Shown: in pieces, positions 3,442-30,090 of the stretch | Layout: the number at the start of each line of letters is the position of its first letter | Numbering within the stretch: position 1 is the first letter of the stretch | Source: an uncultured Candidatus Nitrosopumilus sp. | GTDB lineage: Archaea; Thermoproteota; Nitrososphaeria; Nitrososphaerales; Nitrosopumilaceae | Direction: 5' to 3' | Length of the DNA stretch: 32,000 bases | Assembly (NCBI GenBank): GCA_951812655.1 | Contig: OX638319.1 | Coordinates: 1,185,620 to 1,217,619 of the forward strand | Made by a program: the position numbers and the translations under genes | The notes under the pieces: generated by a model | The model's database searches: none | What the model saw: only the letters and a program-made list of their open reading frames with translations | Told to the model about the DNA's origin: nothing

Positions 3442-3497
3442 AGTATGATTTTTAAAAAAACAATTTTTCTCTAATTGCTCAGTTGTGTTTTCTTCAA

Positions 3498-4448
3498 ATG
3501 ATGTATATCAATCATTGTGATCTTTTATTTTTAGATGGTTCATTTTCATTTATGATAATTGTATTTTATTTTTTTATAATCTCTCAAATTTTTCATATCA
3601 TGAAACATGTTTTGGATTACAAAAATGAGCCAATTACTATCAAGTATGAATCCAGCATTGCTGATGTTTTAAAAAAAATTATTGACGAAAAAATGAGCAG
3701 ATTTTTGGTCACAAAAAATGACAAAATCACTGGTATTGTGACTGAAAAGGATTTGGGATTCCTTCTTCTATCTGAAGACACCAAAAGAAAACTGGATGAA
3801 ATTCCATTGTCGGTAATCACTAAAACAGTAATTTCTGTTGATGAGTTTGCTAGCATGCATGAATGTGCGGAAACTATGCTAACAAAATCAATTGGGTCAT
3901 TGGCAGTAGAATCAAAAAAGGAAATTACTGGAATTTTAACAAAAACTGATCTCGTCAATTATTTTTCTAAAACTTATTCTGAAGAAAAGATGGTTGGAGA
4001 GTACATGTCTCCATATTATGCTTGGTTGTACTTTGATACTCCGATATACAAAGTGGTTCGGAAAATGATTGACGAAAAGATATCTCGACTAATACTTCGA
4101 GATCGTGATGAGGTACCTGTAGGAATCATAACATTTCGAGATTTGTTTGAATTGGCACTAAAACAAGGAAATTATGATGAAGTTCTTGATAACACTGATC
4201 CAGCAATATCGGTAATATTTCCTCGAAAGGGATTCATTTCAGAATCTGGGTTTGGTGGATCTATAAAGGCAGATGCCATCATGAGTAAAAATATTGTATC
4301 CGTAAATTACGATGATGATTTGGCAAAAGCTTGCAAGGTGCTCTTGGAGAAAAACATCAACGGTGCTGCAGTCTTATCTAAGCATGGAGGTATTGTGGGA
4401 ATCATTAGTAAAACCGATATCGTTAAGGCTGTGGCATTTTTAAAATAA
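3498..4448 (+). CDS. four-CBS-domain protein with hydrophobic N-terminal segment
   Basis: Four CBS repeats by eye (...GIVTEKDL, ...GILTKTDL, ...GIITFRDL, ...GIISKTDI). The ORF opens at TTG 3483. ATG 3498 keeps the hydrophobic FSFMIIVFYFFIISQIF segment; ATG 3600 is an alternative start. Confidence 0.8.
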   Translation: MMYINHCDLLFLDGSFSFMIIVFYFFIISQIFHIMKHVLDYKNEPITIKYESSIADVLKKIIDEKMSRFLVTKNDKITGIVTEKDLGFLLLSEDTKRKLDEIPLSVITKTVISVDEFASMHECAETMLTKSIGSLAVESKKEITGILTKTDLVNYFSKTYSEEKMVGEYMSPYYAWLYFDTPIYKVVRKMIDEKISRLILRDRDEVPVGIITFRDLFELALKQGNYDEVLDNTDPAISVIFPRKGFISESGFGGSIKADAIMSKNIVSVNYDDDLAKACKVLLEKNINGAAVLSKHGGIVGIISKTDIVKAVAFLK

Positions 4449-10485: not shown

Positions 10486-10919
10486 ATGAATAGTACATTT
10501 GTGAATGATGTGATGAATAAAAATGTGGCAACGGTTGACAAATCATCGTCACTGCAACAAGCTGCAGCTAGTATGAAAAACTCAAACATTGGCTGTGTGA
10601 TTGTTGCTGATAACAATGAGCCTGTGGGAATAATCACTGAAAGGGATTTTGTGGATATTGCCGCAGACGGAATACCTTTGTTTACCGATGTCAACGAAGT
10701 GATGTCCTCACCATTGATCACAATTGATTTTGAAGAAACAGTTTGGGAAGCCTCTGAAATAATGAAAAAAAAGGAATTCATAAACTTCCTGTTTCCAGAA
10801 ATGAGAATATCGTTGGAATAGACACGACTACTGATATTGTAAGAATTTCTAGCCTGGGATCTGATTCGGAAATGCGCAGAATTTGTGATCAAATTATTTT
10901 AAGAATGCAAAACAAGTAA
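10486..10919 (+). pseudogene. CBS-pair protein interrupted by a frameshift in an A8 homopolymer
   Basis: The frame from 10486 encodes CBS1 and the start of CBS2 up to EIMKKK (A-run 10765-10772), then stops at 10821. The frame starting at 10773 continues as GIHKLPVSRNENIVGIDTTTDIVRISS... to TAA 10917-10919, a normal CBS2 end. Confidence 0.75.
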
Positions 10920-18574: not shown

Positions 18575-19987
18575 TCATATCGGTTTACCTTTGAACTGAT
18601 AATCTGTTATCTTATGGAATGTGTTGTGTGAAGCAATCACCGCAAGTGTAGATAATGCAGCCCATATGAAATTTCTGATTGTTATTATCTCATTTGGTTT
18701 ATCGATTATCAAAGATGTTTGGAAGACTACGTAAAAGTTATCGAACATCCAAAATGCCATAGTAATCCATGAGAGCAGACCTCCTATAAGAAATCCTAAT
18801 CTTGTTTTACTTCTTACAAAAACTATTGCGGTGATAATTGTAATGTACCAAAGTATTCCTGCTATCACCCATGCTGGTTCAAAGAGCTCGATTCTGTCGT
18901 CCAACCAGTAGTATGTGGTTCCAACTACTGCCATTGCAATAAGGGATACAAGTAAAAGTTTCTGATTAATTTTAAATCCCGTTTTTTCTTCTCTTAATGG
19001 GGTAGTTGGAGGGTTGTTTCTAATCTCATTTGTTGCAATATCTATGGCTTCCGTTACAGATTTGAGATTCATTGGAATCACTTTGACTATCGAATCATCG
19101 GTTACTACTGTATCATGTACCAAACTGTCAATCAAAGGCCTTGCCAACGATGCTTTAACAGGAGTGATCAGGTCAACCCAGTATGATGATAGACGTGTAG
19201 TTAGAAATGGAATTTCAATTACGAATAGTTTTTTGTTCAGATACTGAGAATAAACTCTCATGAGCTGCTCGTATGTTATTTTGTCTTTTCCTCCTATCTC
19301 GTATATTTTCCCTGTCGTTTCCTGATGCGTCATGCATCCTGATGGATATTCTATCACGTTATCCACTGCTATGGGTTGTGCAAGTGATTTCACCCATGAA
19401 GGACAAACCATGACGGGAAGTCTTTCTACAAGGTATCGCAGCATCGCATATGATCCTCCCTGTGCTCCAATAATCAAAGACGCTCGTAGTTCTGTTATTG
19501 GAATTTTCCCTGATGCCCGAATCTCTCCTACCTCTTTCCTGCTTCTCATGTGAGGTGATAACTTTAGACTGTCATTGACCAGTCCCCCGAGATAAATTAT
19601 TCTCTTTACTCCTGCCTTTGATGCAGCTGCAACAAAGTTTTGTGCCTGAATTTTTTCACGTGATGCGAACTCCTTCCAGTGATTCTTGCTACCTTCCATC
19701 GAATGAAGCAGATAATATGCAATTTCAACTCCTGACAATGCATTTTCCAATTGAGAGACATCAAATACGTCTGCTTTGACATATTTCACATTGTGCGTAT
19801 TTTGAATATTCTTCCTAGACATTCCCTTTACAGAATAGCCTCTTTTGGTGAGATGTGAAATTAAACGTGATCCGATAAACCCTGTGGCGCCAGTTACCAT
19901 TATACTGAAAGGTTTGTATTTTGGCGCTGAACATTCTAGAGTCTGTGTAGATTTGGCTTGATATTGTTTCTCTAACATCCGAATCAC
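18575..19987 (-). CDS. NAD(P)-binding SDR/NmrA-like protein fused to a C-terminal four-TM domain
   Basis: Rossmann motif IMVTGATGFIGSRL near the N-terminus and four hydrophobic helices in the last ~130 aa. GTG 19987 lies 2 nt after the DUF1059 stop. Confidence 0.8.
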   Translation of the reverse strand: MIRMLEKQYQAKSTQTLECSAPKYKPFSIMVTGATGFIGSRLISHLTKRGYSVKGMSRKNIQNTHNVKYVKADVFDVSQLENALSGVEIAYYLLHSMEGSKNHWKEFASREKIQAQNFVAAASKAGVKRIIYLGGLVNDSLKLSPHMRSRKEVGEIRASGKIPITELRASLIIGAQGGSYAMLRYLVERLPVMVCPSWVKSLAQPIAVDNVIEYPSGCMTHQETTGKIYEIGGKDKITYEQLMRVYSQYLNKKLFVIEIPFLTTRLSSYWVDLITPVKASLARPLIDSLVHDTVVTDDSIVKVIPMNLKSVTEAIDIATNEIRNNPPTTPLREEKTGFKINQKLLLVSLIAMAVVGTTYYWLDDRIELFEPAWVIAGILWYITIITAIVFVRSKTRLGFLIGGLLSWITMAFWMFDNFYVVFQTSLIIDKPNEIITIRNFIWAALSTLAVIASHNTFHKITDYQFKGKPI

Positions 19988-19989
19988 TG

Positions 19990-20160
19990 TTATTTTACAT
20001 TGATTTTGTTTGATATCAATACCATCAGAGACTCTTTTTGGTATTCTATTCCGTGCATCTGTTCCATGTGCTTGCCGAATTTTTCAAGTAAGTTGGATGA
20101 TTCAACATCGATTTCATATTTGCACTCAAAACCATAGTCTAAACATTTTATTTGTGTCAT
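19990..20160 (-). CDS. DUF1059-like small protein (56 aa)
   Basis: Hand translation gives MTQIKCLDYGFECKYEIDVESSNLLEKFGKHMEQMHGIEYQKESLMVLISNKINVK. The C..(Y/G)F.C...... + H....HG pattern matches DUF1059. Missed by the ORF track (<60 aa). Confidence 0.6.
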   Translation of the reverse strand: MTQIKCLDYGFECKYEIDVESSNLLEKFGKHMEQMHGIEYQKESLMVLISNKINVK

Positions 20161-20180: not shown

Positions 20181-20217
20181 ATATTTAACTAGTGATCAAA
20201 CTAATAACTAGTGCTAA
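20181..20217 (-). promoter_or_regulatory. motif-B promoter of the DUF1059-SDR operon
   Basis: Gene direction reads TTTAGCACTAG - 19 nt (ending GATCACTAG) - TTAAATAT - 20 nt - ATG 20160. The 9-mer TTAGCACTA (20209-20217) spans -57..-49. Confidence 0.6.
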
Positions 20218-20384
20218 ATTTAGATTTTTTCTGTCTAACGCGCTATCACGAAACTGTGTATCTTTGAAAATCTTTTTCAGAAAACATAGTCATAAAAAGC
20301 AAGAATTGATTTATTCTAAACACACATATTTTGTAAAACTCAATTTTGACATACGATATCAATAGTACATATATTGAATAATGT

Positions 20385-20834
20385 GTGACAGATGTAGAAT
20401 TGTTCAAAAATATCACTGTCGCTTTAATTACTCCCACGCACACAAAAAAGTCATTTGATCTGGGTCTGGCAATGGCAAAAAAATTTGGTGCTGAATTGTC
20501 TGTTATTGAATGTGTTTATAAGACTCCTCCAAAATTCTACTTCTTTGAAACAGATTCTGACAAGAAGATTTTACGAGACAAAATTTCAAAACTCAAGGAT
20601 GAGCTGAAAAAATGGAAGGAATTGGGTGAGAAAGAAGGTGTAAAAACTCACACGAAATTCACATTGACTGACTCAATTGCTCATTGGGTAATTGACTATG
20701 CTAAGGAACACAAAGTAGAACTTTTGGTTGTGGACTATCCAAAGCTTTCGATGATAGAGGCAAACCACTTTGATGACATTATTAACACCATTCATCATAA
20801 GGCTCATTGTCATGTGTTGACGACAAAAAACTAG
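20385..20834 (+). CDS. Usp-like protein lacking the ATP-binding glycine motif
   Basis: Usp-like layout (ITVALITPTH...AELSVIECVY...VELLVVDYP...HCHVLTTK), but no G-x2-G-x9-G-S/T motif. GTG start. Confidence 0.55.
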   Translation: MTDVELFKNITVALITPTHTKKSFDLGLAMAKKFGAELSVIECVYKTPPKFYFFETDSDKKILRDKISKLKDELKKWKELGEKEGVKTHTKFTLTDSIAHWVIDYAKEHKVELLVVDYPKLSMIEANHFDDIINTIHHKAHCHVLTTKN

Positions 20835-21037
20835 TTTTATCAAATTTTTAAACATGTTTTGTAGAATTTTCATTCATTCATTATTCACTATGATTCATTA
20901 TTCAATGATTCAAAAAATTATGATTTTGAACAACTCAATGTGCTATAGTTTGACTAAATGATCTGATATGTGTCGTTTCGTGTTTATCTGACATGCAAAT
21001 TTCATTTGTAAATTATCTCCGTCTGCAAAGTTTTTAA

Positions 21038-22144
21038 TCAACGCCTGATTTCTAGAATCTTCTTTGCTGTCTTTTCTGATATGAATACAGCTAGCATTCC
21101 CATTATTGTTGCAGGTATGAGCGTGATTATGAATACGTCATTGATCATTTCAAAATAAACAAAATAAATCAGGCTAGGTGAAACCAGTTTACCGAGTAAT
21201 ACCTCATTGAAAGTATACATCACATATGGATAGTATGCCATGTAAAATATCGAGCCTAGGAGCCCTCCTGCAAACATTGATGCTTTTTTACCTTTGAAAA
21301 AAAACATTGTAAGATCTGCTATGATAAATGGGATCAAATTTAGTGAATAAAATGACATTGAATCCATTAACGCAAAATTTGGAATGATGGCGGTTGAACT
21401 GTAGATCAACAAAAATAATCCCCCTAGAAGACTAATCATTCCAAACCTGAAACCCGACAATCTGAATATGAGAAAACATGATGTTGAAATCAATAATGGA
21501 AATCCAAGTGTGGCAGAAATTAACGCAAATGTAGGTTCTGGATTGAATTGAAAATAATTTGTATTTGAAAAAGGCAAAGAGAGTGATGAAATAATTCCTG
21601 ACCCGGACAACCAAACTGGCATAACTGCCAAAAGCAGGAGAAGACTTTGATGGTACTTTGACTTGATGATTTTCAAGAATTTTGAAATGCCTATCATTCC
21701 ACCTATGGCACAAAAGAACATTCCTGCAATCAATGTCAAATGTGGTGGGCTTAAGAGTCCGTCCAATCCAAAATTTGAATGCCAAATATAATCAAAAGGA
21801 CCTGCACTGGAAAGCAATCCTATTCCGATTAGACTGCTTTTCAAAGAAACAAAATACGTGCTTTTGAATTCTTGCATTTTTCTCCAGCTAAGAAACGACG
21901 TCACTGTACCTGCCAATGAAATTGTAACCCCCAGATACATTACTGCGTGAGGAGGTGAAAAAAACGTGTCAGGTTTGCTTAGCAAGTGGTTTGTAATATC
22001 CCAGCTTCCTCCTACAGTTACTAATAAAATTCCAAAGCTAACCAAAACACACCCGATGAGAAAAACGTGTTCAGAATAATTGCTCCACAGGAGGCTCACG
22101 GATTTTGATTTCATTCTCTTTCTATCCTCTACACATCCACACAA
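21038..22144 (-). CDS. polytopic membrane protein of unknown function
   Basis: About 10 hydrophobic segments. Has duplicated motifs W-x4-H...SPPH (aa 48-66) and W-H...SPPH (aa 121-135). Start is TTG 22144 or ATG 22114. It begins 4 nt after the upstream ORF. Confidence 0.6.
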   Translation of the reverse strand: MCGCVEDRKRMKSKSVSLLWSNYSEHVFLIGCVLVSFGILLVTVGGSWDITNHLLSKPDTFFSPPHAVMYLGVTISLAGTVTSFLSWRKMQEFKSTYFVSLKSSLIGIGLLSSAGPFDYIWHSNFGLDGLLSPPHLTLIAGMFFCAIGGMIGISKFLKIIKSKYHQSLLLLLAVMPVWLSGSGIISSLSLPFSNTNYFQFNPEPTFALISATLGFPLLISTSCFLIFRLSGFRFGMISLLGGLFLLIYSSTAIIPNFALMDSMSFYSLNLIPFIIADLTMFFFKGKKASMFAGGLLGSIFYMAYYPYVMYTFNEVLLGKLVSPSLIYFVYFEMINDVFIITLIPATIMGMLAVFISEKTAKKILEIRR

Positions 22145-22148
22145 AACA

Positions 22149-22730
22149 TTAGGGATTTACATTAACCGAATAAACCTGAACAAACTCTCCTTGGTGATCC
22201 AAAATACCTGATTGTGGATAATGTGAAAGATCACTTGTATGGGGTATGTTGACTGATTTTATCAACACTGAAAAATTACCCACTGTCTCAGGCGTGACGA
22301 TCTGTGACATCTTGTATGTGGATCCTGGATGAATTGGCCTGCTCGTTGCCTCGATAGATGGGTATTTTGCTTTTATGTGTTCAAGACCTCCGCTGTATCT
22401 TGCTATCATTTCATCTCCTGGAATCACTTTCACTGGAGTCTGGGTAAAGTCATACGTTGTTATCCGTACTGTCTCGTCTATTTCAACAACGTTTGGAAAT
22501 GCTGTAGAAAGGATGTGGATATCTCCATAGTCCCCACCGTTTTTGGTGATGATGTCAACATTGAATGATTCTCCAAGAGAAATTTCTTTTTCAGATATTG
22601 TGACTTCAAACATAGGTTCAGAAATCAGTTTTTCATTTGACATGTATTGCTCGGGGAGTATATACAGGGTCAATGAAAAGTATATTGATAAAAACAACGC
22701 TGCACTTACCACAAAAATCAATTTCTTCAC
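22149..22730 (-). CDS. N-terminally anchored or secreted hypothetical protein (193 aa)
   Basis: GTG start with the TATA TTTTTTAATA 19 nt upstream. Has an N-terminal hydrophobic helix. No family recognised. Confidence 0.55.
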   Translation of the reverse strand: MKKLIFVVSAALFLSIYFSLTLYILPEQYMSNEKLISEPMFEVTISEKEISLGESFNVDIITKNGGDYGDIHILSTAFPNVVEIDETVRITTYDFTQTPVKVIPGDEMIARYSGGLEHIKAKYPSIEATSRPIHPGSTYKMSQIVTPETVGNFSVLIKSVNIPHTSDLSHYPQSGILDHQGEFVQVYSVNVNP

Positions 22731-22828
22731 GATGTAGTTTTTTGGTCACTATTAAAAAATGATAAATTTCTCGTTGTTTTCCTAAAATTTTATTTTACCG
22801 ATATGGTTTGGAAACAATTCTTATCAAT

Positions 22829-23083
22829 CTATGGATCATAGTGAATCTGCATCAATTGCTGTTTTTGTTCGTTTGTACCAAACACCCTAATTGATTTTTC
22901 GATACAATTGTCTAGTTCTAATCCCTCATGAAATAGTGACCCGCAATCATCTAATGCGTATTTAAGATTACGTTGATCACGTTCTCCAACGTAGTCGTCA
23001 AAAGTGGAGTTGGCAACGCTTACAATTGTGATGATGGATGTAATTACAATGCCTACTGTGACTATGACTGAAATATTTGGCAT
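22829..23083 (-). CDS. small N-terminally anchored protein (84 aa)
   Basis: TM helix (VIVTVGIVITSIITIVSVA) plus a small two-Cys domain. It starts 1 nt after the stop of the 442-aa gene. Confidence 0.5.
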   Translation of the reverse strand: MPNISVIVTVGIVITSIITIVSVANSTFDDYVGERDQRNLKYALDDCGSLFHEGLELDNCIEKSIRVFGTNEQKQQLMQIHYDP

Positions 23084-23084
23084 G

Positions 23085-24413
23085 CTATTCTTGAAGATTC
23101 AACGGAATTGATGTATTTCCAAAGTCTTCATTAATTCTAAAAAAATACTCTTTTGATGAATCATATTCAAATTTTGTTCCTCCATATCCTATGTTTGGAC
23201 CAAATAACATGTTGAACTCTCTGGAATCGTTTGGATTCATTGTAATTTGGCCACTTGTAAAGTCCATTCCAGAATATTTGAATTCTTTTTCTCCGTTTGA
23301 TACATCATATGCGCATATCTGTGGACTAGTGCAGTTTATCGTGACAATCTCTGAGCTTGTATTTTCTGCAAGTATGCGAATTGACAGTATTGTTTGTCCT
23401 GTTGATGTCGTTGAGAATTCGTTACCTTCTGAGTTGAACCCTTTCCAATAGTAAGTGATTGGCCCTACTGAGAATTTTTCTCCTTCTGTTTTGTATTCAT
23501 AAAGGGTGATGGATTTTTTTATCGGTTTTTGACAATCTATTTTTTTGTATGCAGTTGAAATCTCTGAGCATTTCTCTAGATCCTGGTATAATTTTGTTAA
23601 TTCTGGTTTTATGTTTTTGACATTAACGGATGATGTGGGATTTGATTCATTGTCTAAAGATGGTGAAATTATTCCTTCCTTTATCAGGTGCTGTATGCCT
23701 GAGACGAATTCTCCGTCAGATATCGCTCCGTCTGCCCACCATCCTGCATTGCTCTTGATCCAGTCCGGAATCGGCTCTCCAGAGCTCTGAGATGAAACGG
23801 TGGTTGGAGGAATTGTGACAATTCCTTCCTTTATCAGGTGCTGTATGCCTGAGACGAATTCTCCGTCAGATATCGCTCCGTCTGCCCACCATCCTGCATT
23901 GCTCTTGATCCAGTCCGAAATGTGGTTTTGTGATGGTATATTTTTTCGAAAACTTGGATCTATTGATTCTAAAATCTCATTCATGTCATGTCCTGGAATT
24001 TTCACAACAGCTGCAGAAATTATTTCTATATTGTCACCATTGGGGGTTGTTTTATCGATATATTTTGCATAAAGCATGTCTCCTTCGTTAGATGCCAGTC
24101 TGTTTTTTGAGGTTTCGCCTGAATTGGCAACGTATACTGATCCCTTGAAGATTCCACTAAACACCCCATTCTCTATTACCTCAATTTCTAATCCATTAGG
24201 AGATGTATCTGACCACACTTCAATCATAAATTTGTCTGCAAAATTGGGATATTCCTTTTTGTTCATGTCATCATCAATCACATATATCTGTGCAAAGGAA
24301 TTGCTAGAAACTATTTCCTGCTTCCAATATACAATTCCGAGATCATTTGATTCTGCAAATGCCAGGGGAGTGAACATGAAAAAAAGTGGGATGACTAGGT
24401 TAATCTTTCTCAA
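23085..24413 (-). CDS. secreted protein with two copies of a W-rich ~33-aa repeat
   Basis: TTG start and signal peptide MRKINLVIPLFFMFTPLAFA. Carries the repeat DWIKSNAGWWADGAISDGEFVSGIQHLIKEGI twice. The C-terminal domain is paralogous to the 24540-25451 product. Confidence 0.8.
   Translation of the reverse strand: MRKINLVIPLFFMFTPLAFAESNDLGIVYWKQEIVSSNSFAQIYVIDDDMNKKEYPNFADKFMIEVWSDTSPNGLEIEVIENGVFSGIFKGSVYVANSGETSKNRLASNEGDMLYAKYIDKTTPNGDNIEIISAAVVKIPGHDMNEILESIDPSFRKNIPSQNHISDWIKSNAGWWADGAISDGEFVSGIQHLIKEGIVTIPPTTVSSQSSGEPIPDWIKSNAGWWADGAISDGEFVSGIQHLIKEGIISPSLDNESNPTSSVNVKNIKPELTKLYQDLEKCSEISTAYKKIDCQKPIKKSITLYEYKTEGEKFSVGPITYYWKGFNSEGNEFSTTSTGQTILSIRILAENTSSEIVTINCTSPQICAYDVSNGEKEFKYSGMDFTSGQITMNPNDSREFNMLFGPNIGYGGTKFEYDSSKEYFFRINEDFGNTSIPLNLQE
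23681..23917. repeat. 237-bp tract identical to 25133-25369
   Basis: A base-by-base comparison found no mismatch. It contains an internal 97-bp duplication with a 150-bp period (23671-23767 vs 23821-23917). Confidence 0.9.
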
Positions 24414-24434
24414 TGACTCTCATATTCGATTAAG

Positions 24435-24470
24435 ATATTTAAGAAAAAAATTATTTTGCACTAGTGCTAA
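24435..24470 (-). promoter_or_regulatory. motif-B promoter of the 442-aa gene
   Basis: Gene direction reads TTTAGCACTAG - 18 nt - TTAAATAT - 21 nt - TTG 24413. The 9-mer at 24462-24470 spans -57..-49 and sits within the 10-bp palindrome GCACTAGTGC (24459-24468). Confidence 0.55.
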
Positions 24471-24539
24471 AAATTATAATTCCTTGGGAGAAAACGTGAG
24501 GATCTGTTTCGCATTACATGATGAAAATAAAAAAAGTAA

Positions 24540-25451
24540 TCATCCCAAGTTTAATGGGATTGATTGACTTCCAAATGATTCCATTATTCGGAAATGGTAT
24601 TCTTTTGATGGATCATATTCAAATTTTGTTCCTCCTCCGCCAATGTTTGGCCCGAAGAACATGTTGAATATTTTTGGTTCACCAGGTTTTAGGATTATTT
24701 GACCGTTTGTAAAGTCCATTCCTGAATACTTGTATTCCATATCTCCGCCTATTACGTCATAGTTACAGATTACTGGTCCTGTACAAAACAATGATTCGTT
24801 TTTATCCGAACCCGTATTCTCTACCAGTATTCTTAGATTCAGCAGTGCTTGACCTGCGGATGTTATCTCAAAACTGTTTCCATCTGTACCTAGTCCTGGC
24901 CAATAGAATGTGACTGGACCAGCTTGAAATTGCTCTGAATCCATTTTCATGTTGTATGCAGTAATGTTATGCTCTGCATCTCTTTCACAGTTGAGTCGTT
25001 CGTAGGCCTTAGTTATTTCCTCACATCTGTTTAATTCTGCTTGTAATTCAGACAATTCTGAATTGTCAGATGTTTCAATTTTTGATTCGACAGGCGAGTT
25101 TTCTGATATTGGGATACTCACAATTCCAGTTTTTATCAGGTGCTGTATGCCTGAGACGAATTCTCCGTCAGATATCGCTCCGTCTGCCCACCATCCTGCA
25201 TTGCTCTTGATCCAGTCCGGAATCGGCTCTCCAGAGCTCTGAGATGAAACGGTGGTTGGAGGAATTGTGACAATTCCTTCCTTTATCAGGTGCTGTATGC
25301 CTGAGACGAATTCTCCGTCAGATATCGCTCCGTCTGCCCACCATCCTGCATTGCTCTTGATCCAGTCCGGAATTTCTTCTTGTGCTGAAGCAAACGAGGT
25401 GACAGATCCAACTAATAGTATTGCGGAAATTGCAATTATTGTTGCTTTCAT
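24540..25451 (-). CDS. secreted paralogue with the same two W-rich repeats
   Basis: Signal peptide MKATIIAISAILLVGSVTSFASA, two DWIKSNAGWWADGAISDGEFVSGIQHLIK repeats, and a C-terminal domain alignable to the 442-aa protein (…YKYSGMDFTNGQI…FGPNIGGGGTKFEYD…). Confidence 0.8.
   Translation of the reverse strand: MKATIIAISAILLVGSVTSFASAQEEIPDWIKSNAGWWADGAISDGEFVSGIQHLIKEGIVTIPPTTVSSQSSGEPIPDWIKSNAGWWADGAISDGEFVSGIQHLIKTGIVSIPISENSPVESKIETSDNSELSELQAELNRCEEITKAYERLNCERDAEHNITAYNMKMDSEQFQAGPVTFYWPGLGTDGNSFEITSAGQALLNLRILVENTGSDKNESLFCTGPVICNYDVIGGDMEYKYSGMDFTNGQIILKPGEPKIFNMFFGPNIGGGGTKFEYDPSKEYHFRIMESFGSQSIPLNLG
25133..25369. repeat. 237-bp tract identical to 23681-23917
   Basis: Second copy, direct orientation, offset 1452 bp. 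Confidence 0.9.
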
Positions 25452-25473
25452 AGGATGCTTTTTTCACTCATTG

Positions 25474-25509
25474 CATATAAGCTAGTTCTAATTTTTTATC
25501 TAGTGGTAA
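25474..25509 (-). promoter_or_regulatory. motif-B promoter of the 303-aa gene
   Basis: Gene direction reads TTTACCACTAG - 18 nt (ending TTAGAACTAG) - CTTATATG - 22 nt - ATG 25451. The 9-mer at 25501-25509 spans -58..-50. A further copy, TTGGCACTA, is at 25536-25544. Confidence 0.5.
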
Positions 25510-25522
25510 AAAATACAATTTA

Positions 25523-26140
25523 ATGCAAAATCTACTAGTGCCAACATCAATTTTTTCTTATGGAGTTTATAACCGATGGTTAATTTCTCAAATAGTGAAA
25601 AAGAATTTCATTCATAGCGGACCTGAAAAAGTGACTGTAAATGAAAAAGAGATAGTCCACTTTGTCATTAACAGATTTTCAGAAATAAAAAAATCAAAAA
25701 AAATAGCTGAACTTGTAGAATTTCAGGCAATGAACAAGTACATGCTGATGGTTCACAATCAACAACAATTGAAAATCCTTGGAAATCTAGTTGCAAGCCA
25801 CAAAACAATTCCAATTGAAGATATTTTAGAACAATACCATGCACATCTGAAAAATGCCCTTTCCAAACCCCCTACAATCAAGACTCATCTGAATGCCATG
25901 ATGCATATTTTTGGATATTTTTCCAAGCATTTCACTTCTGCAGAAAAAGATCTGTATTTTCAATTGCTATCTCAGTTCAAAAATGAAAAAATAACTGTTG
26001 GGAAAACGCTGTCTGAGATTGGTCCGCTGATTTACAGATTTAATGACACATATCTTGCTAGACAGACCTATTTCTTGTTATATGCTGACACCCGACCTGG
26101 AGTTCTTTTTGCTGTTTTTGACAATAAAATTTTGCGCTAA
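25523..26140 (+). CDS. DUF1722 (YbgA-like) protein
   Basis: VEFQAMNKYMLMVHNQQQLKILGNLVAS...THLNAMMHIFGYFSKHFTSAEKDLYFQLLSQFKNEKI...YLARQTYF follows the DUF1722 pattern. The exact start is uncertain. Confidence 0.65.
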   Translation: MQNLLVPTSIFSYGVYNRWLISQIVKKNFIHSGPEKVTVNEKEIVHFVINRFSEIKKSKKIAELVEFQAMNKYMLMVHNQQQLKILGNLVASHKTIPIEDILEQYHAHLKNALSKPPTIKTHLNAMMHIFGYFSKHFTSAEKDLYFQLLSQFKNEKITVGKTLSEIGPLIYRFNDTYLARQTYFLLYADTRPGVLFAVFDNKILR

Positions 26141-26147
26141 TCATCAT

Positions 26148-26184
26148 TTGGCACTATGAATGATAATAGGCATTAGTTAAATAT
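26148..26184 (+). promoter_or_regulatory. motif-B promoter of the B12-binding gene
   Basis: TTTGGCACTAT - 19 nt (ending TAGGCATTAG) - TTAAATAT - 20 nt - ATG 26205. The 9-mer TTGGCACTA (26148-26156) spans -57..-49. Confidence 0.6.
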
Positions 26185-26204
26185 TTCACTTCTTAATCAA
26201 AATC

Positions 26205-27053
26205 ATGGTATACATACGTACAAAGAAAGTAAAGGGCGTTCAGTACCTGTATCTTGTTAAGAGCGTATGGGATCCAAAAAATAAGACATCTAAACAAGAG
26301 ATAGTAAAATATCTTGGAAAGGCAGCGGATGTAGTCAAGGATGATATTCCTGTTGAGTATAGGGATAATCCAAAAATTCTATCGGTTCTGGCAGCCCAAA
26401 ATCCTGAGGACATCAAAAGAAGAGAGGAGGCGTCTGAAAAATCCAGGAAACTCCTTTACAAAAAATTGACAGATGGCGACATTAACATCTGTGTTAAGAT
26501 TTACGATGAATACGTAAAGATTTTCAATACCACAGATTTTTTTGATAAAATTTTGAAACCAGTGATGTACCGAATAGGTGACGAGTGGGCTAATAATAAA
26601 ATCAGCATAGCAACAGAGCACGTTGCAAGCAATGTTGCTCAAACGCTGGTCAAAATCATCATGGATAAAGAGACCGTTAATGCCAACAAAAAGAAAGTTC
26701 TTTTGTGTGTACCACTTGGCGAAGAACATCATCTTGGATGCGATGTGATCGAGACGTTTCTTACTGGCAAAGGTTACAAAGTATTCAACATGGCTACATC
26801 CATCCCATCAGATTCGATATTGTATTTCATAGAGCACAATGAGCCCGATGTCGTAATGGTTTCAATCACGTTAGATGACAATCTGAAAACTGGTCAGCGC
26901 TTGATAAAAAAGATCAAAGATAGTTTTGACGTTCCGATACTTGTAGGGGGATTTGCATTGGAACAAGAAAAGATACCCAATTTTGACGCAAAAGTCATTG
27001 TTAATCTTGCACTCAATGAACTGCCAAAAATAATACGAACAGCAATCAGCTAG
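26205..27053 (+). CDS. CarH/LitR-type cobalamin-binding photoreceptor-like protein with non-MerR N-terminal module
   Basis: Helical-bundle signature W128-x9-E138-H139 (WANNKISIATEH, codons 26586-26621). Rossmann B12 motif E173-x-H175-x-x-G178 (EEHHLG), then 41 residues to SITL and a later VGG. The N-terminal 40 aa (VYIRTKKVKGVQYLYLVKSVWDPKNKTSKQEIVKYLGK) is not a MerR HTH. Confidence 0.75.
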   Translation: MVYIRTKKVKGVQYLYLVKSVWDPKNKTSKQEIVKYLGKAADVVKDDIPVEYRDNPKILSVLAAQNPEDIKRREEASEKSRKLLYKKLTDGDINICVKIYDEYVKIFNTTDFFDKILKPVMYRIGDEWANNKISIATEHVASNVAQTLVKIIMDKETVNANKKKVLLCVPLGEEHHLGCDVIETFLTGKGYKVFNMATSIPSDSILYFIEHNEPDVVMVSITLDDNLKTGQRLIKKIKDSFDVPILVGGFALEQEKIPNFDAKVIVNLALNELPKIIRTAIS

Positions 27054-28383
27054 AATTTTGTAAAAATTTTTCTATCTTTGGATGGCATAGAATTGAACTA
27101 TGCGCTGCAGAGTCTGTACCTATTCCGTAACTGATGGTAGAATCTCCTACAAAGAAAAGTCCCTCGACATGTGATATCTGATGGGGCATCTTTGACTTCC
27201 AAACCATGCCTGGCTCTTTAACTACCGATTCTACCAATTTCCAGGCCATTGGCCTTTCCCAAAGCAATGATTTTTCAAAATCAGGGTATATTGAACTCAG
27301 CTCGTTTTTCATATTTTCTACAATCTGTTTGATTTTTTTTTGATTTTCAGCTTCTTCAGGGAGAACGGGCGTTCCGGCAATCATGAGATGTTCCCAAGGG
27401 GGACATACAGAGGGAGTTATGTTTGAAATGAAGAAAAAACCCTTGGTGGTGAAATCTCCCACTGGAAAAACTATCTGTTTGGAATCTATTTTTCTATTTA
27501 GGGCGAAATGTACTTCAACAACAGCTGTTGTTTTATCAAGGCAATTGACTTTTTTAATAAATTCTTGATCAAACACATCGTCCTCAAACAGATTGTTAAT
27601 TGCTTGATATGCTGGAAGTGATATCACCACGCATTTAGAATGATGAAACGTTCCATCCTGTGTTATTATGCCCTCAACTTTGGAATCTTTTATGATGATT
27701 CTTTTAATTTGCGAATTAAGGTGAATTTTTCCACGATTGTCTTCAACAAAACCCTGTAAGATTCTGGAAATTGCATCGTATCCACCATCAGAGGGATATG
27801 CAAATTCACTTGTTCCTCCTTTGAATGGGTTGGCACGTATCATAGTTCGAGCAAATTCTCCCAATGAAATGTGATCAGCTGTATCCGCAAATGCTAGCAT
27901 GCAAACCGCTTCAAAGAATGCATTTGTATTCACATCCAGCTTTTTTGTTATCTCTGTCAATGACAGATTGTCCCATTCTTCGGTTTTTTTCATTGATGTA
28001 AATGCCATGGGTAGTAGTATTCTGAGCAGTTTGACTCGACTTGAAAATGGAATTAACGTTAGTTGGAGTAGGTCCGATATGCCCTTTGGATATTTGTGAA
28101 ATCCTGAATCTGAATAAAACGCTATGTTGTCCACTTTGGCAAGATTGAGATTTGCCTCTATGTTGAGTTTCTTTAGAATTTCAAATATTGCAGATTTTTT
28201 GTAAAAAGGCATGATGTGGAATCCGTTGTCTAATATGTGGTTTTTGAAGGTCGTTGAGGCCGTTCTTCCCCCTACTTTCCCCATTTTTTCAAAAATTTCC
28301 ACTGGATGGCCGTTTTTTGCAAGTAGAGATCCAATGGTTAGTCCTCCAACTCCTGCTCCGATGACATGAATTCTGTTTCTCAT
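27046..28383 (-). CDS. FAD-dependent oxidoreductase of the phytoene desaturase (CrtI/CrtD-like) family
   Basis: N-terminal dinucleotide fold IHVIGAGVGGLTIGSLLAKNGHPVEIFEKMGKVGGR and C-terminal FFVGDSTISYGIGTDSAAHSS. Its 3' end overlaps the convergent B12-binding gene by 8 nt. Confidence 0.8.
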   Translation of the reverse strand: MRNRIHVIGAGVGGLTIGSLLAKNGHPVEIFEKMGKVGGRTASTTFKNHILDNGFHIMPFYKKSAIFEILKKLNIEANLNLAKVDNIAFYSDSGFHKYPKGISDLLQLTLIPFSSRVKLLRILLPMAFTSMKKTEEWDNLSLTEITKKLDVNTNAFFEAVCMLAFADTADHISLGEFARTMIRANPFKGGTSEFAYPSDGGYDAISRILQGFVEDNRGKIHLNSQIKRIIIKDSKVEGIITQDGTFHHSKCVVISLPAYQAINNLFEDDVFDQEFIKKVNCLDKTTAVVEVHFALNRKIDSKQIVFPVGDFTTKGFFFISNITPSVCPPWEHLMIAGTPVLPEEAENQKKIKQIVENMKNELSSIYPDFEKSLLWERPMAWKLVESVVKEPGMVWKSKMPHQISHVEGLFFVGDSTISYGIGTDSAAHSSILCHPKIEKFLQNSS

Positions 28384-28403
28384 GAAGATTTTGTCCCAAA
28401 TTT

Positions 28404-28440
28404 GTATTTAACATCGTGCTAACTCTCTACATAGTGCTAA
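28404..28440 (-). promoter_or_regulatory. motif-B promoter of the CrtI-like gene
   Basis: Gene direction reads GTTAGCACTAT - 19 nt (ending GTTAGCACGATG) - TTAAATAC - 20 nt - ATG 28383. The 9-mer at 28432-28440 spans -57..-49. Confidence 0.6.
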
Positions 28441-28444
28441 CTAT

Positions 28445-28882
28445 CTATTTATCTGCATTTTCAATGAATTTTTCTGACAAGGCAAGAAACTCTTCCATAA
28501 CGTTTGACATGTGACGCTTAAGAATAAATCCAAACGGTAGAAACATCTTTGCAATTCCGTTTAGTTTAATTGAAACATCTATTGCTATGTCGGTTCCACC
28601 ATTTGTTTCAAAGTAATGTTCAACAAACATCGTTCCTCTCATCATTCCAGAAAGAATGTGGACTTCGTGAACGTCTGGACGCAATATTATGTGTTTGACT
28701 TGGACATTTAAAAAATATATTTTTTCATCAACAAGTATTTCATTTTTGAGTCTTTTCTGTATCTTCAAACTTTTGAAATGTTTTGGCATTATCTTGGAAA
28801 AATTTTCAATGTCTATGCTAATGGAAAAAAGTATGTCTCTTTTTATCTTGGATTTTTTCTTAAGTCTAAAATGTATCATCAT
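28445..28882 (-). CDS. SRPBCC (START/polyketide-cyclase-like) superfamily candidate
   Basis: 145 aa. The beta-rich core plus a long C-terminal helix (HMSNVMEEFLALSEKFIENA) resembles Polyketide_cyc2-type proteins. The assignment is tentative. Confidence 0.45.
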   Translation of the reverse strand: MMIHFRLKKKSKIKRDILFSISIDIENFSKIMPKHFKSLKIQKRLKNEILVDEKIYFLNVQVKHIILRPDVHEVHILSGMMRGTMFVEHYFETNGGTDIAIDVSIKLNGIAKMFLPFGFILKRHMSNVMEEFLALSEKFIENADK

Positions 28883-28933
28883 AGATCAAGATTTTAAAAT
28901 TTGCAAACCACAATATTCATACCCGCCACAACT

Positions 28934-28970
28934 GTATATTAAAAATTAAAATTGATTTAGATAGTGCCAA
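28934..28970 (-). promoter_or_regulatory. motif-B promoter-like element upstream of the SRPBCC gene
   Basis: Gene direction reads GTTGGCACTAT - 19 nt - TAATATAC, then 51 nt to ATG 28882, implying a leader of about 31 nt. Confidence 0.4.
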
Positions 28971-29023
28971 CAAAAAAATATTTCATGCCACTTATGATTA
29001 TAAACAATTGGATTGTGAAATAT

Positions 29024-29060
29024 TTACCACTAGAATATTTTTTTATTCCGCTTTAAATAA
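29024..29060 (+). promoter_or_regulatory. motif-B promoter of the uORF-TFB-Zn-ribbon operon
   Basis: TTTACCACTAG - 19 nt - TTAAATAA - 20 nt - ATG 29081. The 9-mer TTACCACTA (29024-29032) spans -57..-49. Confidence 0.55.
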
Positions 29061-29080
29061 TTTATTTTCTAATTTACTAT

Positions 29081-29191
29081 ATGCCACTATGGCCTCTTAA
29101 TAAAAACATCTGGCAAAATCACATGATGTTGATTTCTTTCACAAAACAGATGATGGAAACTTACAGTTTTGGAGTCGAAAATAAAAAATGA
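29081..29191 (+). CDS. 36-codon leaderless upstream ORF coupled to TFB
   Basis: MPLWPLNKNIWQNHMMLISFTKQMMETYSFGVENKK. Its ATG sits 20 nt after the TATA box, as at the sibling promoters. Its TGA (29189-29191) overlaps the TFB ATG (ATGA). No family recognised; it may only mark the transcription start. Confidence 0.3.
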   Translation: MPLWPLNKNIWQNHMMLISFTKQMMETYSFGVENKK

Positions 29192-30090
29192 ATGATGTTG
29201 TACATTTGAGAAATTGTAAAAAAATTTCACTAATCACTGATCTTATTACTGGTGAAATTGCGTGCAGTCATTGTGGCGCGGTTGTCTCAGAAAAATCTGT
29301 AGCTGAAAGTTCCGATTCTTCGTTTGCTTCAGGCGAGGAATACATGAGCAATTCCAGGACAGGTCAGAAAATCTCTCTGAAAATGGCAGACATGGGACTC
29401 TCAACAGTCATCGAATCCAAAGATCGTGATTCTACAGGAAGATCCCTGTCTGCTGAGAATAGAAGGATGTTTTATCGTCTGAGAATGTGGGACAGAAACA
29501 GCAGGTTTGCAAACACCAGTCAATCGTATGTGAGGGCATTTACCTTGTTAGACGGTTTGAAGTCTAAACTGGGTCTTTCTGATAATGTTGTAGAGCAAAC
29601 GGCATATCTTTTCAGGAAGATTACGATAAAAAAAATTCTTGCAGGTAGATCTACTGTTGGAATGCTGTGTGCTACCACATACATCGCATGCAGGATGACT
29701 AACACTCCTAGAACTATTCAGGATGTGGCAAGTGCTGGTAACATAAAAAGAAAACAACTTCAAAGCATCTACAGATTTCTTTTGCAGGAACTGGAAATAT
29801 ATCCTGAATCTTACAGTCCTACTGAATTTGTAACAAGAATTTCTAACGAGTCAAATGTTTCGGAAAAAACAAGACGATATGCAATTAGTATTCTGCTCAA
29901 ATCTGAAAAGATTGGCCTCACAACTAGTAAAAATCCCATGGCAATGGCAGCAGCAGCCCTTTACCTTTCATCTTTGAAGCATAAAGAGAAAATTTCACAA
30001 ACAAAAATTTCCAGGATTTCGGGTATCAGTTCTGTAACTATTCGTGATAGATCTGGTGAGATTAGGCAAAAACTGGGAGGTGAGATATAA
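29188..30090 (+). CDS. tfb: transcription initiation factor B (TFIIB homologue) paralogue with degenerate Zn ribbon
   Basis: The N-terminal ribbon-like segment NCKKISLITDLITGEIACSHCGAVV has only 3 Cys (C-x2-I...C-x2-C). It is followed by B-reader/linker regions and two cyclin-fold repeats (…LCATTYIACRMTNTPRTIQDVA…, …AAAALYLSSLKHKEKISQTKISRISGISSVTIRDR…). Confidence 0.9.
   Translation: MNDVVHLRNCKKISLITDLITGEIACSHCGAVVSEKSVAESSDSSFASGEEYMSNSRTGQKISLKMADMGLSTVIESKDRDSTGRSLSAENRRMFYRLRMWDRNSRFANTSQSYVRAFTLLDGLKSKLGLSDNVVEQTAYLFRKITIKKILAGRSTVGMLCATTYIACRMTNTPRTIQDVASAGNIKRKQLQSIYRFLLQELEIYPESYSPTEFVTRISNESNVSEKTRRYAISILLKSEKIGLTTSKNPMAMAAAALYLSSLKHKEKISQTKISRISGISSVTIRDRSGEIRQKLGGEI

Follow-up and report, generated by a model that had tools for sequence, protein, structure and literature searches.

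A conserved 10-base promoter signal in Nitrosopumilus probably marks genes switched in light by a B12-binding protein

We analyzed 32,000 nucleotides (nt) of an uncultured Candidatus Nitrosopumilus sp. genome (contig OX638319.1, positions 1,185,620 to 1,217,619; this whole stretch is hereafter the window), in which a short element, TTRSCACTA, precedes a cluster of promoters around a gene for a B12-binding protein (26205..27053, forward strand). The window is AT-rich (36% G+C) and contains nine exact matches to this 9-mer where 0.71 are expected; none of 100 dinucleotide shuffles reached nine. The shorter core SCACTAK constitutes much weaker evidence (13 matches versus 6.4 expected). Eight of the nine matches lie between 20209 and 29032, and seven of the nine are non-coding, against an expected 26% (binomial P = 1.6e-3, with a crude map of open reading frames, ORFs). 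An additional match counted as coding, at 25536, falls within the 5' end of a DUF1722 ORF that was probably over-called. The match at 4152-4160 is internal to another ORF (3483-4448), has no TATA box or start codon at the expected distances, and is most likely due to chance. A preliminary description of the window had proposed that seven promoters share the element, always in the orientation of their genes. The shared element is borne out, with eight promoter copies; the eighth (25535-25544) serves DUF1722 and has the opposite orientation to that gene.

Four promoters have an identical frame, as had been claimed and as a base-by-base check confirms: the 10-mer TTRSCACTAK, 19 nt, an 8-nt TATA box (TTAAATAN), 20 nt, and ATG. 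The first (26148..26184, forward strand) drives the B12 gene itself. Its site 1 is TTGGCACTAT (26148-26157), and a second, weaker copy, TAGGCATTAG (26167-26176), abuts the TATA box TTAAATAT (26177-26184), with the ATG of the gene 20 nt further on. The encoded candidate regulator (282 amino acids, aa) consists of an N-terminal beta domain, a helical linker, and a B12 module of the CarH type. The second promoter (20181..20217, reverse strand) carries TTAGCACTAG at 20208-20217, a second copy, TGATCACTAG, at 20189-20198, and a TATA box at 20181-20188. It precedes DUF1059 (19990-20160) and a 470-aa NAD-binding NmrA/epimerase-like protein of the short-chain dehydrogenase/reductase type (18575-19987), both assigned by Pfam, which likely form a leaderless operon (18575..20160). 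The third (28404..28440, reverse strand) has TTAGCACTAT at 28431-28440, TTAGCACGAT at 28413-28422, and the TATA box TTAAATAC at 28404-28411, upstream of the gene for a 445-aa FAD flavoprotein (27046..28383). This protein had been called CrtI-like; it belongs to the amine-oxidase family (Pfam Amino_oxidase, E = 4e-27) and scores far below every NCBIfam carotenoid-desaturase cut-off. The fourth (29024..29060, forward strand) consists of TTACCACTAG (29024-29033), 19 nt, and the TATA box TTAAATAA (29053-29060). It is followed by a leaderless upstream ORF (uORF) of 36 codons (29081-29191), which shares an ATGA overlap with the beginning of a TFB paralogue gene (29188-30090; TFIIB in both Pfam and NCBIfam).

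The other four promoters deviate from this frame. Those of two genes for secreted repeat proteins, rep442 and rep303, depart from it by 1 to 2 nt. The earlier statement that each is 1 nt off holds for rep442 (24435..24470, reverse strand), where TTAGCACTAG (24461-24470) is followed by 18 nt, the TATA box TTAAATAT (24435-24442), 21 nt, and a TTG start at 24413. It does not hold for rep303 (24540..25451, reverse strand), where 22 nt separate the TATA box (25474-25481) from the ATG at 25451. Judging from the tight spacing on one strand, rep442 and the following genes for 84-aa, 193-aa secreted, and 368-aa membrane proteins (21038..24413) are likely one operon; no Pfam family matched any of the four. 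The region between rep303 and the divergent DUF1722 gene (25474..25544) holds three sites co-oriented on the reverse strand: S3, TTGGCACTAG (25535-25544); S2, TTACCACTAG (25500-25509); and S1, TTAGAACTAG (25482-25491). S1 abuts the rep303 TATA box, while S3 is inverted relative to the DUF1722 (YbgA-like) gene and lies 21 nt upstream of its TATA box TTTATAAC (25566-25573; promoter and gene at 25566..26140, forward strand; Pfam DUF1722, E = 9e-34). Conservation of TATA box and start across loci suggests that this gene probably begins at GTG 25595 and not at ATG 25523, giving a protein of ~181 aa, which compares with 180 and 178 aa in two related loci (L009 and L010).

The eighth promoter (28934..28970, reverse strand) has TTGGCACTAT at 28961-28970, 19 nt, and the TATA-like TAATATAC at 28934-28941, followed by a longer leader and a gene for a 145-aa protein (28445..28882). 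The site-to-TATA module and the longer leader had been described correctly, but the SRPBCC label given to this protein had no basis in Pfam or NCBIfam, neither of which returned a match; the protein is 40% identical to a 151-aa protein in L009. In L009 (12697-13056) and L010 (11333-11695), the same promoter drives a leaderless gene of 119 to 120 aa, and the longer leader in the window is explained by the absence of this gene (28883-28960). A leaderless mini-ORF of eight codons (ATGAATATTGTGGTTTGCAAATTTTAA) is left in its place.

At seven promoters, all but that of the 145-aa gene, the TATA box ends 20 to 22 nt ahead of the start codon. All 11 Thaumarchaeota placed by GeneMarkS-2 fall into group D, in which leaderless transcription dominates and a promoter box stands ~22 to 26 nt ahead of the first start codon of an operon (PMC6028130), and these seven promoters show this arrangement. 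The fixed distance to the start codon is thus a consequence of leaderless transcription, the general mode in Thaumarchaeota. The preliminary description had observed this register correctly, but the register is not peculiar to a regulon: the TATA-to-start geometry is ordinary for leaderless archaeal genes, and it is the site-to-TATA spacing that is specific to these promoters. The register-specific part is a 10-mer 18 to 20 nt upstream of the TATA box, roughly at -58 to -49. Within the window, the composite of mismatch-free site, TATA box, and start codon occurs only at the promoters of the cluster, and a search for weaker sites (up to two mismatches, with TATA box and start codon) found no further convincing promoter there.

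The degenerate second copies reported for four promoters are confirmed by their coordinates (S1 of rep303 being the fourth) and are strongly position-specific. They occupy the position of the B recognition element (BRE) next to the TATA box, while the strong distal copy lies ~12 nt upstream of it. Since the distal copy ends 19 nt before the TATA box, it is not a BRE, and we rejected a specialized BRE for this copy on positional grounds. Of the two proposals made earlier, operator or specialized BRE, the first is supported, and the second fits only the weaker proximal copy. The repeats within one promoter are direct. We also tried a palindromic reading and abandoned it: CACTAGTG is palindromic in some copies, yet the direct and inverted spacings to the TATA box could not be reconciled. 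A repeated mobile cassette was likewise rejected, as the promoters have only the 10-mer and the TATA box in common.

The site is conserved well beyond the window. We collected eight related Nitrosopumilaceae loci through the B12 protein and three more through exact-protein look-ups. Across 16 related loci, including those of Ca. Nitrosocaldus and Nitrososphaeraceae, the site precedes orthologues at the same register, an outcome that the preliminary description had proposed checking. Regulator identity is 70 to 83% among the Nitrosopumilaceae loci, and the start codon mostly follows the 9-mer by 48 to 49 nt. The genes with a register-conserved site are those for the regulator, amine oxidase, NmrA-like reductase, secreted repeat proteins, the 120-aa/145-aa unit, and TFB. 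The NmrA-like orthologue carries it in L006, L008, L009, L010, and L014; the amine-oxidase promoter retains it in L002, L003, L004, L007, and L009; and the divergent S1-S3 layout is kept in L001-L005, L009, and L010. When 27 promoters are aligned on the site, most of the information lies in TTAGCACTAG, TTAAATA, and ATG, and the flanks diverge. In a 10-genome alignment of the regulator's own promoter, site 1, site 2 (GGCATTAG), and the TATA box are invariant, whereas both spacers vary.

This conservation reaches lineages in which the regulator is only 34 to 46% identical. In Ca. Nitrosocaldus (34%), the regulator promoter reads TTGGCACTAG-8 nt-TTAGCACTAT-G-TTTATTTATAA and that of the next gene TTAGGCACTAG-7 nt-TTACCACTAT-TA-TTTATATA, so that both carry a pair of full copies at a distance of 18 nt, of which the proximal copy touches the TATA box; a third promoter has the spacing of the Nitrosopumilus type. 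In Nitrososphaeraceae, the site precedes the regulator gene and an NmrA-like gene, and a soil lineage has the variant TTAGGCATTAG. A Thermoplasmatota contig (70% G+C) has two inverted GGCACT cores upstream of its regulator gene, a single and thus anecdotal example. The regulator promoters of L006 (~2290-2305), L008 (~1865-1880), and L010 (9978-9990) have a third, inverted copy (CTAGTGCCTAAA) between TATA box and start, a classic repressor position; the window's regulator promoter has no such copy. L010 also contains, at 10906 (reverse strand), a full site with only a poor TATA box that is directed into the regulator gene at its 3' end. The amine-oxidase gene is missing from this genome, and the site may be what is left of its promoter, or else an antisense promoter.

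A scan of metagenomes for TTAGCACTAG-N18-20-TTAAATA returned at least 120 stretches. Among the matches listed, a gap of 19 nt between site and TATA box prevailed (69 matches), ahead of 20 nt (45) and 18 nt (18), and an ATG followed the TATA box by 20 to 21 nt in 46 of the 69 with a 19-nt gap. The genes downstream again encoded rep442-like secreted repeat proteins (at least 13 cases, the commonest among the matches listed), rep303-like secreted repeat proteins (at least 10), TFB (at least 10), the B12 regulator (at least four), and the amine oxidase (at least three). Further families were a 192-aa membrane protein (at least about 12 cases), a 64-aa protein (at least five), a 185-aa protein (at least three), and small zinc-finger proteins (at least two), for which Pfam gave sub-threshold matches only: DUF6789/DUF1440-like membrane proteins, a DICT-like match (E = 0.05), and zinc ribbons. 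Among 218 unique promoter-type sites, the spacing to the TATA box was 19 nt in 138. A second copy (position weight matrix score of at least 4 bits) was found at an offset of +18 in 12.4% and +19 in 17.9%, together 30% of promoters, compared with an average of 0.5% at all other offsets. This defines a direct repeat over the BRE position. The proposal that a shared operator marks a regulon around the photoreceptor-like B12 gene is thus supported by both the 16 related loci and the metagenomic families.

Pfam assigns B12-binding_2 and B12-binding to the regulator. Two motifs define CarH homologues, Wx9EH and ExHx2Gx41SxV/Tx22-27GG (PMC8156234), and both are present. The first matches as WANNKISIATEH at residues 128-139; W128, E138, and H139 are invariant in 33 homologues, and the motif aligns with that of a photocobilin. 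The second, which holds the lower axial His, spans residues 173-249 as EEHHLG, 41 residues, SIT, 25 residues, and GG. The light module has the architecture of a four-helix bundle followed by a Rossmann B12-binding module, and its top PDB matches by both sequence and fold are B12 photoreceptors: photocobilins, CarH/LitR, and CtMerR. The best NCBIfam model is also CarH, covering residues 77-266 only, at 54.6 bits against a cut-off of 400. The resemblance has already been picked up by software, as Joint Genome Institute automatic annotation labels some family members [quoted passage not shown].

The N-terminus is of another kind. Residues 1-80 have no Pfam match even at E <= 10 and no MerR-type winged helix; AlphaFold2 models instead place a three-stranded antiparallel sheet in residues 1-40 (strands in 2-39; predicted local distance difference test ~85). 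A search with the N-terminal 88 residues gave 142 cluster representatives, and a B12 domain is present in 41 of the 46 that are full length; named members come from Nitrososphaeraceae, Ca. Nitrosocaldus, and Thermoplasmatota. The domain is basic, with 11 invariant residues across 24 diverse members (alignment A5). One protein, P0249, combines this N-terminus (E = 3.7e-4 in 1.8 billion proteins) with DDE_Tnp_1 by Pfam and matches annotated IS1634 transposases by tblastn. In hhalign, the A5 profile aligned with residues 1-80 of a Rhodococcus IS1634 transposase (WP_065493797.1) at a probability of 95.4% and a pairwise E = 1.7e-8, covering the first ~42 residues of the regulator. By these comparisons, the domain is homologous to the IS1634 transposase N-terminus. 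A profile search with the domain returned only proteins shorter than 80 aa, some of them fragments, and no transposases. Stand-alone beta domains of 45 to 70 aa (P0354, P0356, P0365, P0373, P0384, and P0399) occur in DPANN, Woesearchaeota, and Nanoarchaeota metagenome-assembled genomes and in cyanobacteria; the domain thus exists outside the B12 fusion. Three other proteins (P0163, P0171, and P0175; alignment A2) keep the N-terminal domain and the Rossmann module but no longer have the Trp and Glu-His of Wx9EH, a state that recalls CarA, the CarH paralogue that does not depend on B12.

Genes beside the regulator in related loci encode DNA photolyase (L010 and L011), a Pyr_excise pyrimidine-dimer glycosylase (L009 and L012), and DUF1722, which in L010 and L011 heads a same-strand run ending in the photolyase gene. 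The window has DUF1722 and no photolyase or Pyr_excise homologue. Going by these annotations, the neighborhood is one concerned with light and UV damage. In N. cobalaminigenes HCA1 (CP026993, with the regulator at 608-629 kb; L009, 8845-9780), a gene for a BtuF-like Peripla_BP_2 substrate-binding protein lies directly upstream of the regulator gene, with an Nre_N/Nre_C gene beside it.

The analysis establishes the element with its geometry and conservation, the link between it and the regulator family, and the CarH signatures of that family. Taken together, these suggest that the 10-base signal before about eight promoters probably marks genes switched in light by the B12 protein. That TTRSCACTAK is a functional cis-element defining a regulon is, on the sequence evidence, very likely. 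It is likely that the protein encoded at 26205-27053 binds it and, with slightly less assurance, that the regulon responds to light through B12; for the protein acting as a repressor in the dark, we see the case as evenly balanced. Overall, we are inclined to view the locus as an in-cluster analogue of CarH, in which an adenosylcobalamin (AdoCbl) light module joined to an IS1634-related beta domain represses through TTRSCACTAK in the dark. The B12-bound protein would oligomerize in the dark on co-oriented direct repeats with an 18- to 19-bp period, comprising a high-affinity distal site at ~-58 to -49 and a weaker proximal site over the BRE by the TATA box. Its occupancy would keep TFB and TBP off otherwise strong leaderless promoters. 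Light would photolyze the cofactor, the oligomer would fall apart, and the genes would be expressed. In the window, the genes so controlled would be those for the regulator itself, DUF1722, the NmrA-like reductase with DUF1059, the amine-oxidase flavoprotein, the 145-aa protein, the two secreted repeat-protein units, and TFB; the TFB paralogue could relay the signal to further genes. Repression is favored because the TATA boxes are near consensus, the proximal copies overlap the BRE, and L006, L008, and L010 have the extra inverted copy between TATA box and start.

Several observations weigh against this interpretation. The residue after W128 is Ala and not His. In TtCarH, the His next to the Trp (His132) becomes the upper ligand after photolysis (PMC10442372), and this ligand switch cannot work in the same way here. 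The N-terminal fold has no significant match among solved structures (best Foldseek E = 0.3), and a DNA-binding role is itself assumed for the IS1634 N-terminus. No proximal copy is recognizable at the rep442, uORF/TFB, and 145-aa promoters, and a strong site upstream of the BRE and TATA box, tightly spaced and mostly fixed in orientation, is an activator-like layout. The repeats are 10-mers with an 18- to 19-bp period and not tandem 11-bp repeats as in CarH, and TTRSCACTAK is unrelated to the CarH consensus nAnnTnnACAn; the arrangement is analogous and not the same. Finally, the metagenomic census is circular for the motif itself, although not for the downstream genes, and the genome-wide specificity of the site is extrapolated from ~0.6 Mb of loci picked by regulator gene or motif.

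The site could instead be read by a different factor, such as the TFB paralogue or another regulator, with the B12 protein being a member of the regulon or a DNA-free co-regulator in the style of AerR-CrtJ; we regard this as unlikely. B12-binding antirepressors that have no DNA-binding domain, such as AerR, do exist (PMC9144470), and AerR (PDB 7te2) is among the PDB matches of the regulator, whose putative DNA-binding N-terminal domain has a fold matching no solved DNA-binding domain. This same N-terminal domain is nevertheless highly conserved, basic, and homologous to a transposase N-terminus, and the best-conserved two-site arrangement is found at the regulator's own promoter, as is typical of autoregulation. 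The TFB gene has its own site and is conserved in Nitrosopumilaceae loci, yet the distal site is too far from the TATA box for a BRE read by TFB, and the site accompanies the B12 gene in the distant Nitrosocaldus and Nitrososphaeraceae loci, where no TFB gene was called in the stretches fetched.

Slightly less likely still is that the same protein acts through the same site with the opposite sign. The distal site would then be an upstream activating sequence from which the bound protein recruits TFB or TBP, which needs either the light state to be the DNA-binding form or a dark-induced regulon. In favor of this, the strong site lies ~12 nt upstream of the BRE position at a tight spacing to the TATA box and in a mostly fixed orientation, a mode of binding seen with archaeal activators such as Ptr2 or TFB-RF1, and three window promoters have no proximal copy. 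The near-consensus TATA boxes, however, make help from an activator seem unnecessary. In 30% of promoters, a proximal copy overlaps with the BRE, and in Nitrosocaldus such copies have full strength; some regulator promoters carry a copy between TATA box and start codon, and DUF1722 uses an inverted site at another spacing. In CarH, moreover, it is the dark form that binds DNA; under that precedent, activation would have photolyase-linked genes induced in the dark.

It is improbable that the protein senses cobalamin supply instead of light, the regulon then being a response to B12 status. The module binds B12 by homology, and the BtuF-like gene of N. cobalaminigenes would fit such a role, but the Wx9EH cap that separates AdoCbl photoreceptors from B12 domains of the MetH type is invariant in the 33 homologues, and the neighboring genes are those for photolyase, pyrimidine-dimer glycosylase, and DUF1722, and not for cobalamin biosynthesis or transport. 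We strongly disfavor the absence of any dedicated regulation, be it chance, a generic Nitrosopumilus promoter element, or duplicated cassettes, as very improbable: the AT-rich genome, the generic TATA-to-ATG spacing, and the near-identical long repeats in the two secreted-protein genes, which indicate that local duplication occurs, are outweighed by the shuffling result, the absence of the site from any other promoter in the window, the conservation of the 10-mer and TATA box alone between differing flanks, and the persistence of the site at 34 to 46% regulator identity.

The closest known relatives of the repressor that we favor are the class I CarH/LitR proteins of Myxococcus, Thermus, and Bacillus megaterium, which have the same four-helix bundle and Rossmann module, both motifs, and an N-terminal fusion. 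Further likenesses are a predicted direct-repeat operator over the core promoter and a probably autoregulated gene with links to photoprotection. The N-terminus of CarH, however, is a MerR winged helix and not a three-stranded beta meander; its operator comprises three or four tandem 11-bp repeats and not 10-mers with 18 to 19 bp between starts; and its target is a sigma-A promoter, whereas the targets here are archaeal promoters with TATA box and BRE. CarH binds its operator in the dark as an AdoCbl-dependent oligomer, which dissociates in light. CarH proteins typically also have a His beside the motif Trp, a feature that does not define the family and that the regulator lacks. The best sequence and fold matches, photocobilins (PDB 8j2w and 8j2x) and CtMerR (8jbs), show the same light module with varied output domains. 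These proteins are bacterial and pair the module with bilin-binding, GGDEF, or MerR partners; none has this beta domain and none is archaeal. The IS1634 transposase shares the N-terminus, for which a DNA-binding role is assumed in both proteins, but the regulator has no DDE catalytic domain and joins the N-terminus to a sensor instead. The AerR-CrtJ/PpsR system of purple bacteria likewise controls transcription of light-related genes through B12 binding. AerR, however, lacks a DNA-binding domain and has another repressor as its target, while the N-terminal domain and the autoregulatory site described here suggest direct binding. Archaeal regulators that act around the BRE and TATA box include the repressors MDR1, LrpA, and Phr and the activators Ptr2 and TFB-RF1, whose sites are likewise placed relative to these elements on leaderless promoters. 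To our knowledge, no regulator of these types has a cofactor domain that senses light, and they bind DNA through unrelated domains.

Ammonia-oxidizing archaea rank with the most abundant microbes of the ocean; they are major producers of B12 and are inhibited by light. In the literature, we found no paper on how they perceive light, and no description in archaea of this regulator, motif, non-MerR domain, or regulon. We tentatively propose, at somewhat less than even confidence, that ammonia-oxidizing archaea and some Thermoplasmatota sense light via a B12 photoreceptor transcription factor whose DNA-binding domain was recruited from an IS1634 transposase, and which represses a photoprotection regulon in the dark by occupying direct repeats at the BRE and TATA box; the TFB paralogue among its targets would carry the light response to a second tier of promoters. 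If true, this would be the first light-signaling pathway described in ammonia-oxidizing archaea and would extend B12-based photoreception from bacteria to archaea. The light module of CarH would here act at TATA/BRE promoters through a DNA-binding domain that derives from a transposase and is not of the MerR type, and this would be, as far as we know, the first case of a B12 photoreceptor transcription factor that targets the basal transcription machinery of archaea. The locus presents a concrete circuit that lends itself to testing, with a candidate sensor, an operator of 10 bp and defined geometry, and a list of targets; among these are photolyase-linked genes, redox enzymes, secreted proteins, and a paralogue of a basal transcription factor. 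It is relevant to the evolutionary re-use of sensor modules and to light-switchable tools, and the operator could provide a simple predictor of light-regulated genes in uncultured archaeal genomes.

Some further features of the cluster concern the TFB and repeat-protein genes. The TFB paralogue retains three of four ribbon cysteines. In L006 (3298) and L010 (12242), the counterpart of the uORF codes for 49 to 51 aa that include a complete CxxC...CxxC zinc ribbon. L002, L004, and L007 have lost part of the cysteines; the window and L003 have an unrelated 36-aa ORF; and N. cobalaminigenes (L009, 13207) has no uORF, its TFB beginning at a leaderless ATG. By this comparison, the uORF looks like a decaying gene. 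The TFB promoters (window 29043-29083; L002 8669; L003 12821; L004 5224; L007 2721) keep a G+C-rich CCGC at the BRE position, and their TATA-to-start stretch (TTAAATAATTTATTTYCKTAATTTAGTTATG) is conserved more than the uORF coding sequence, which suggests an extra control element in this promoter. Finally, rep442 and rep303 have in common a 265-nt coding repeat (PDWIKSNAGWWADGAISDGEFVSGIQHLIKEGI unit) at 23671-23935, 23821-24085, and 25123-25387, with further segments at 23098-23309 and 24550-24761. The repeat is 96% identical between the two genes, compared with 73% elsewhere, which suggests recent gene conversion.

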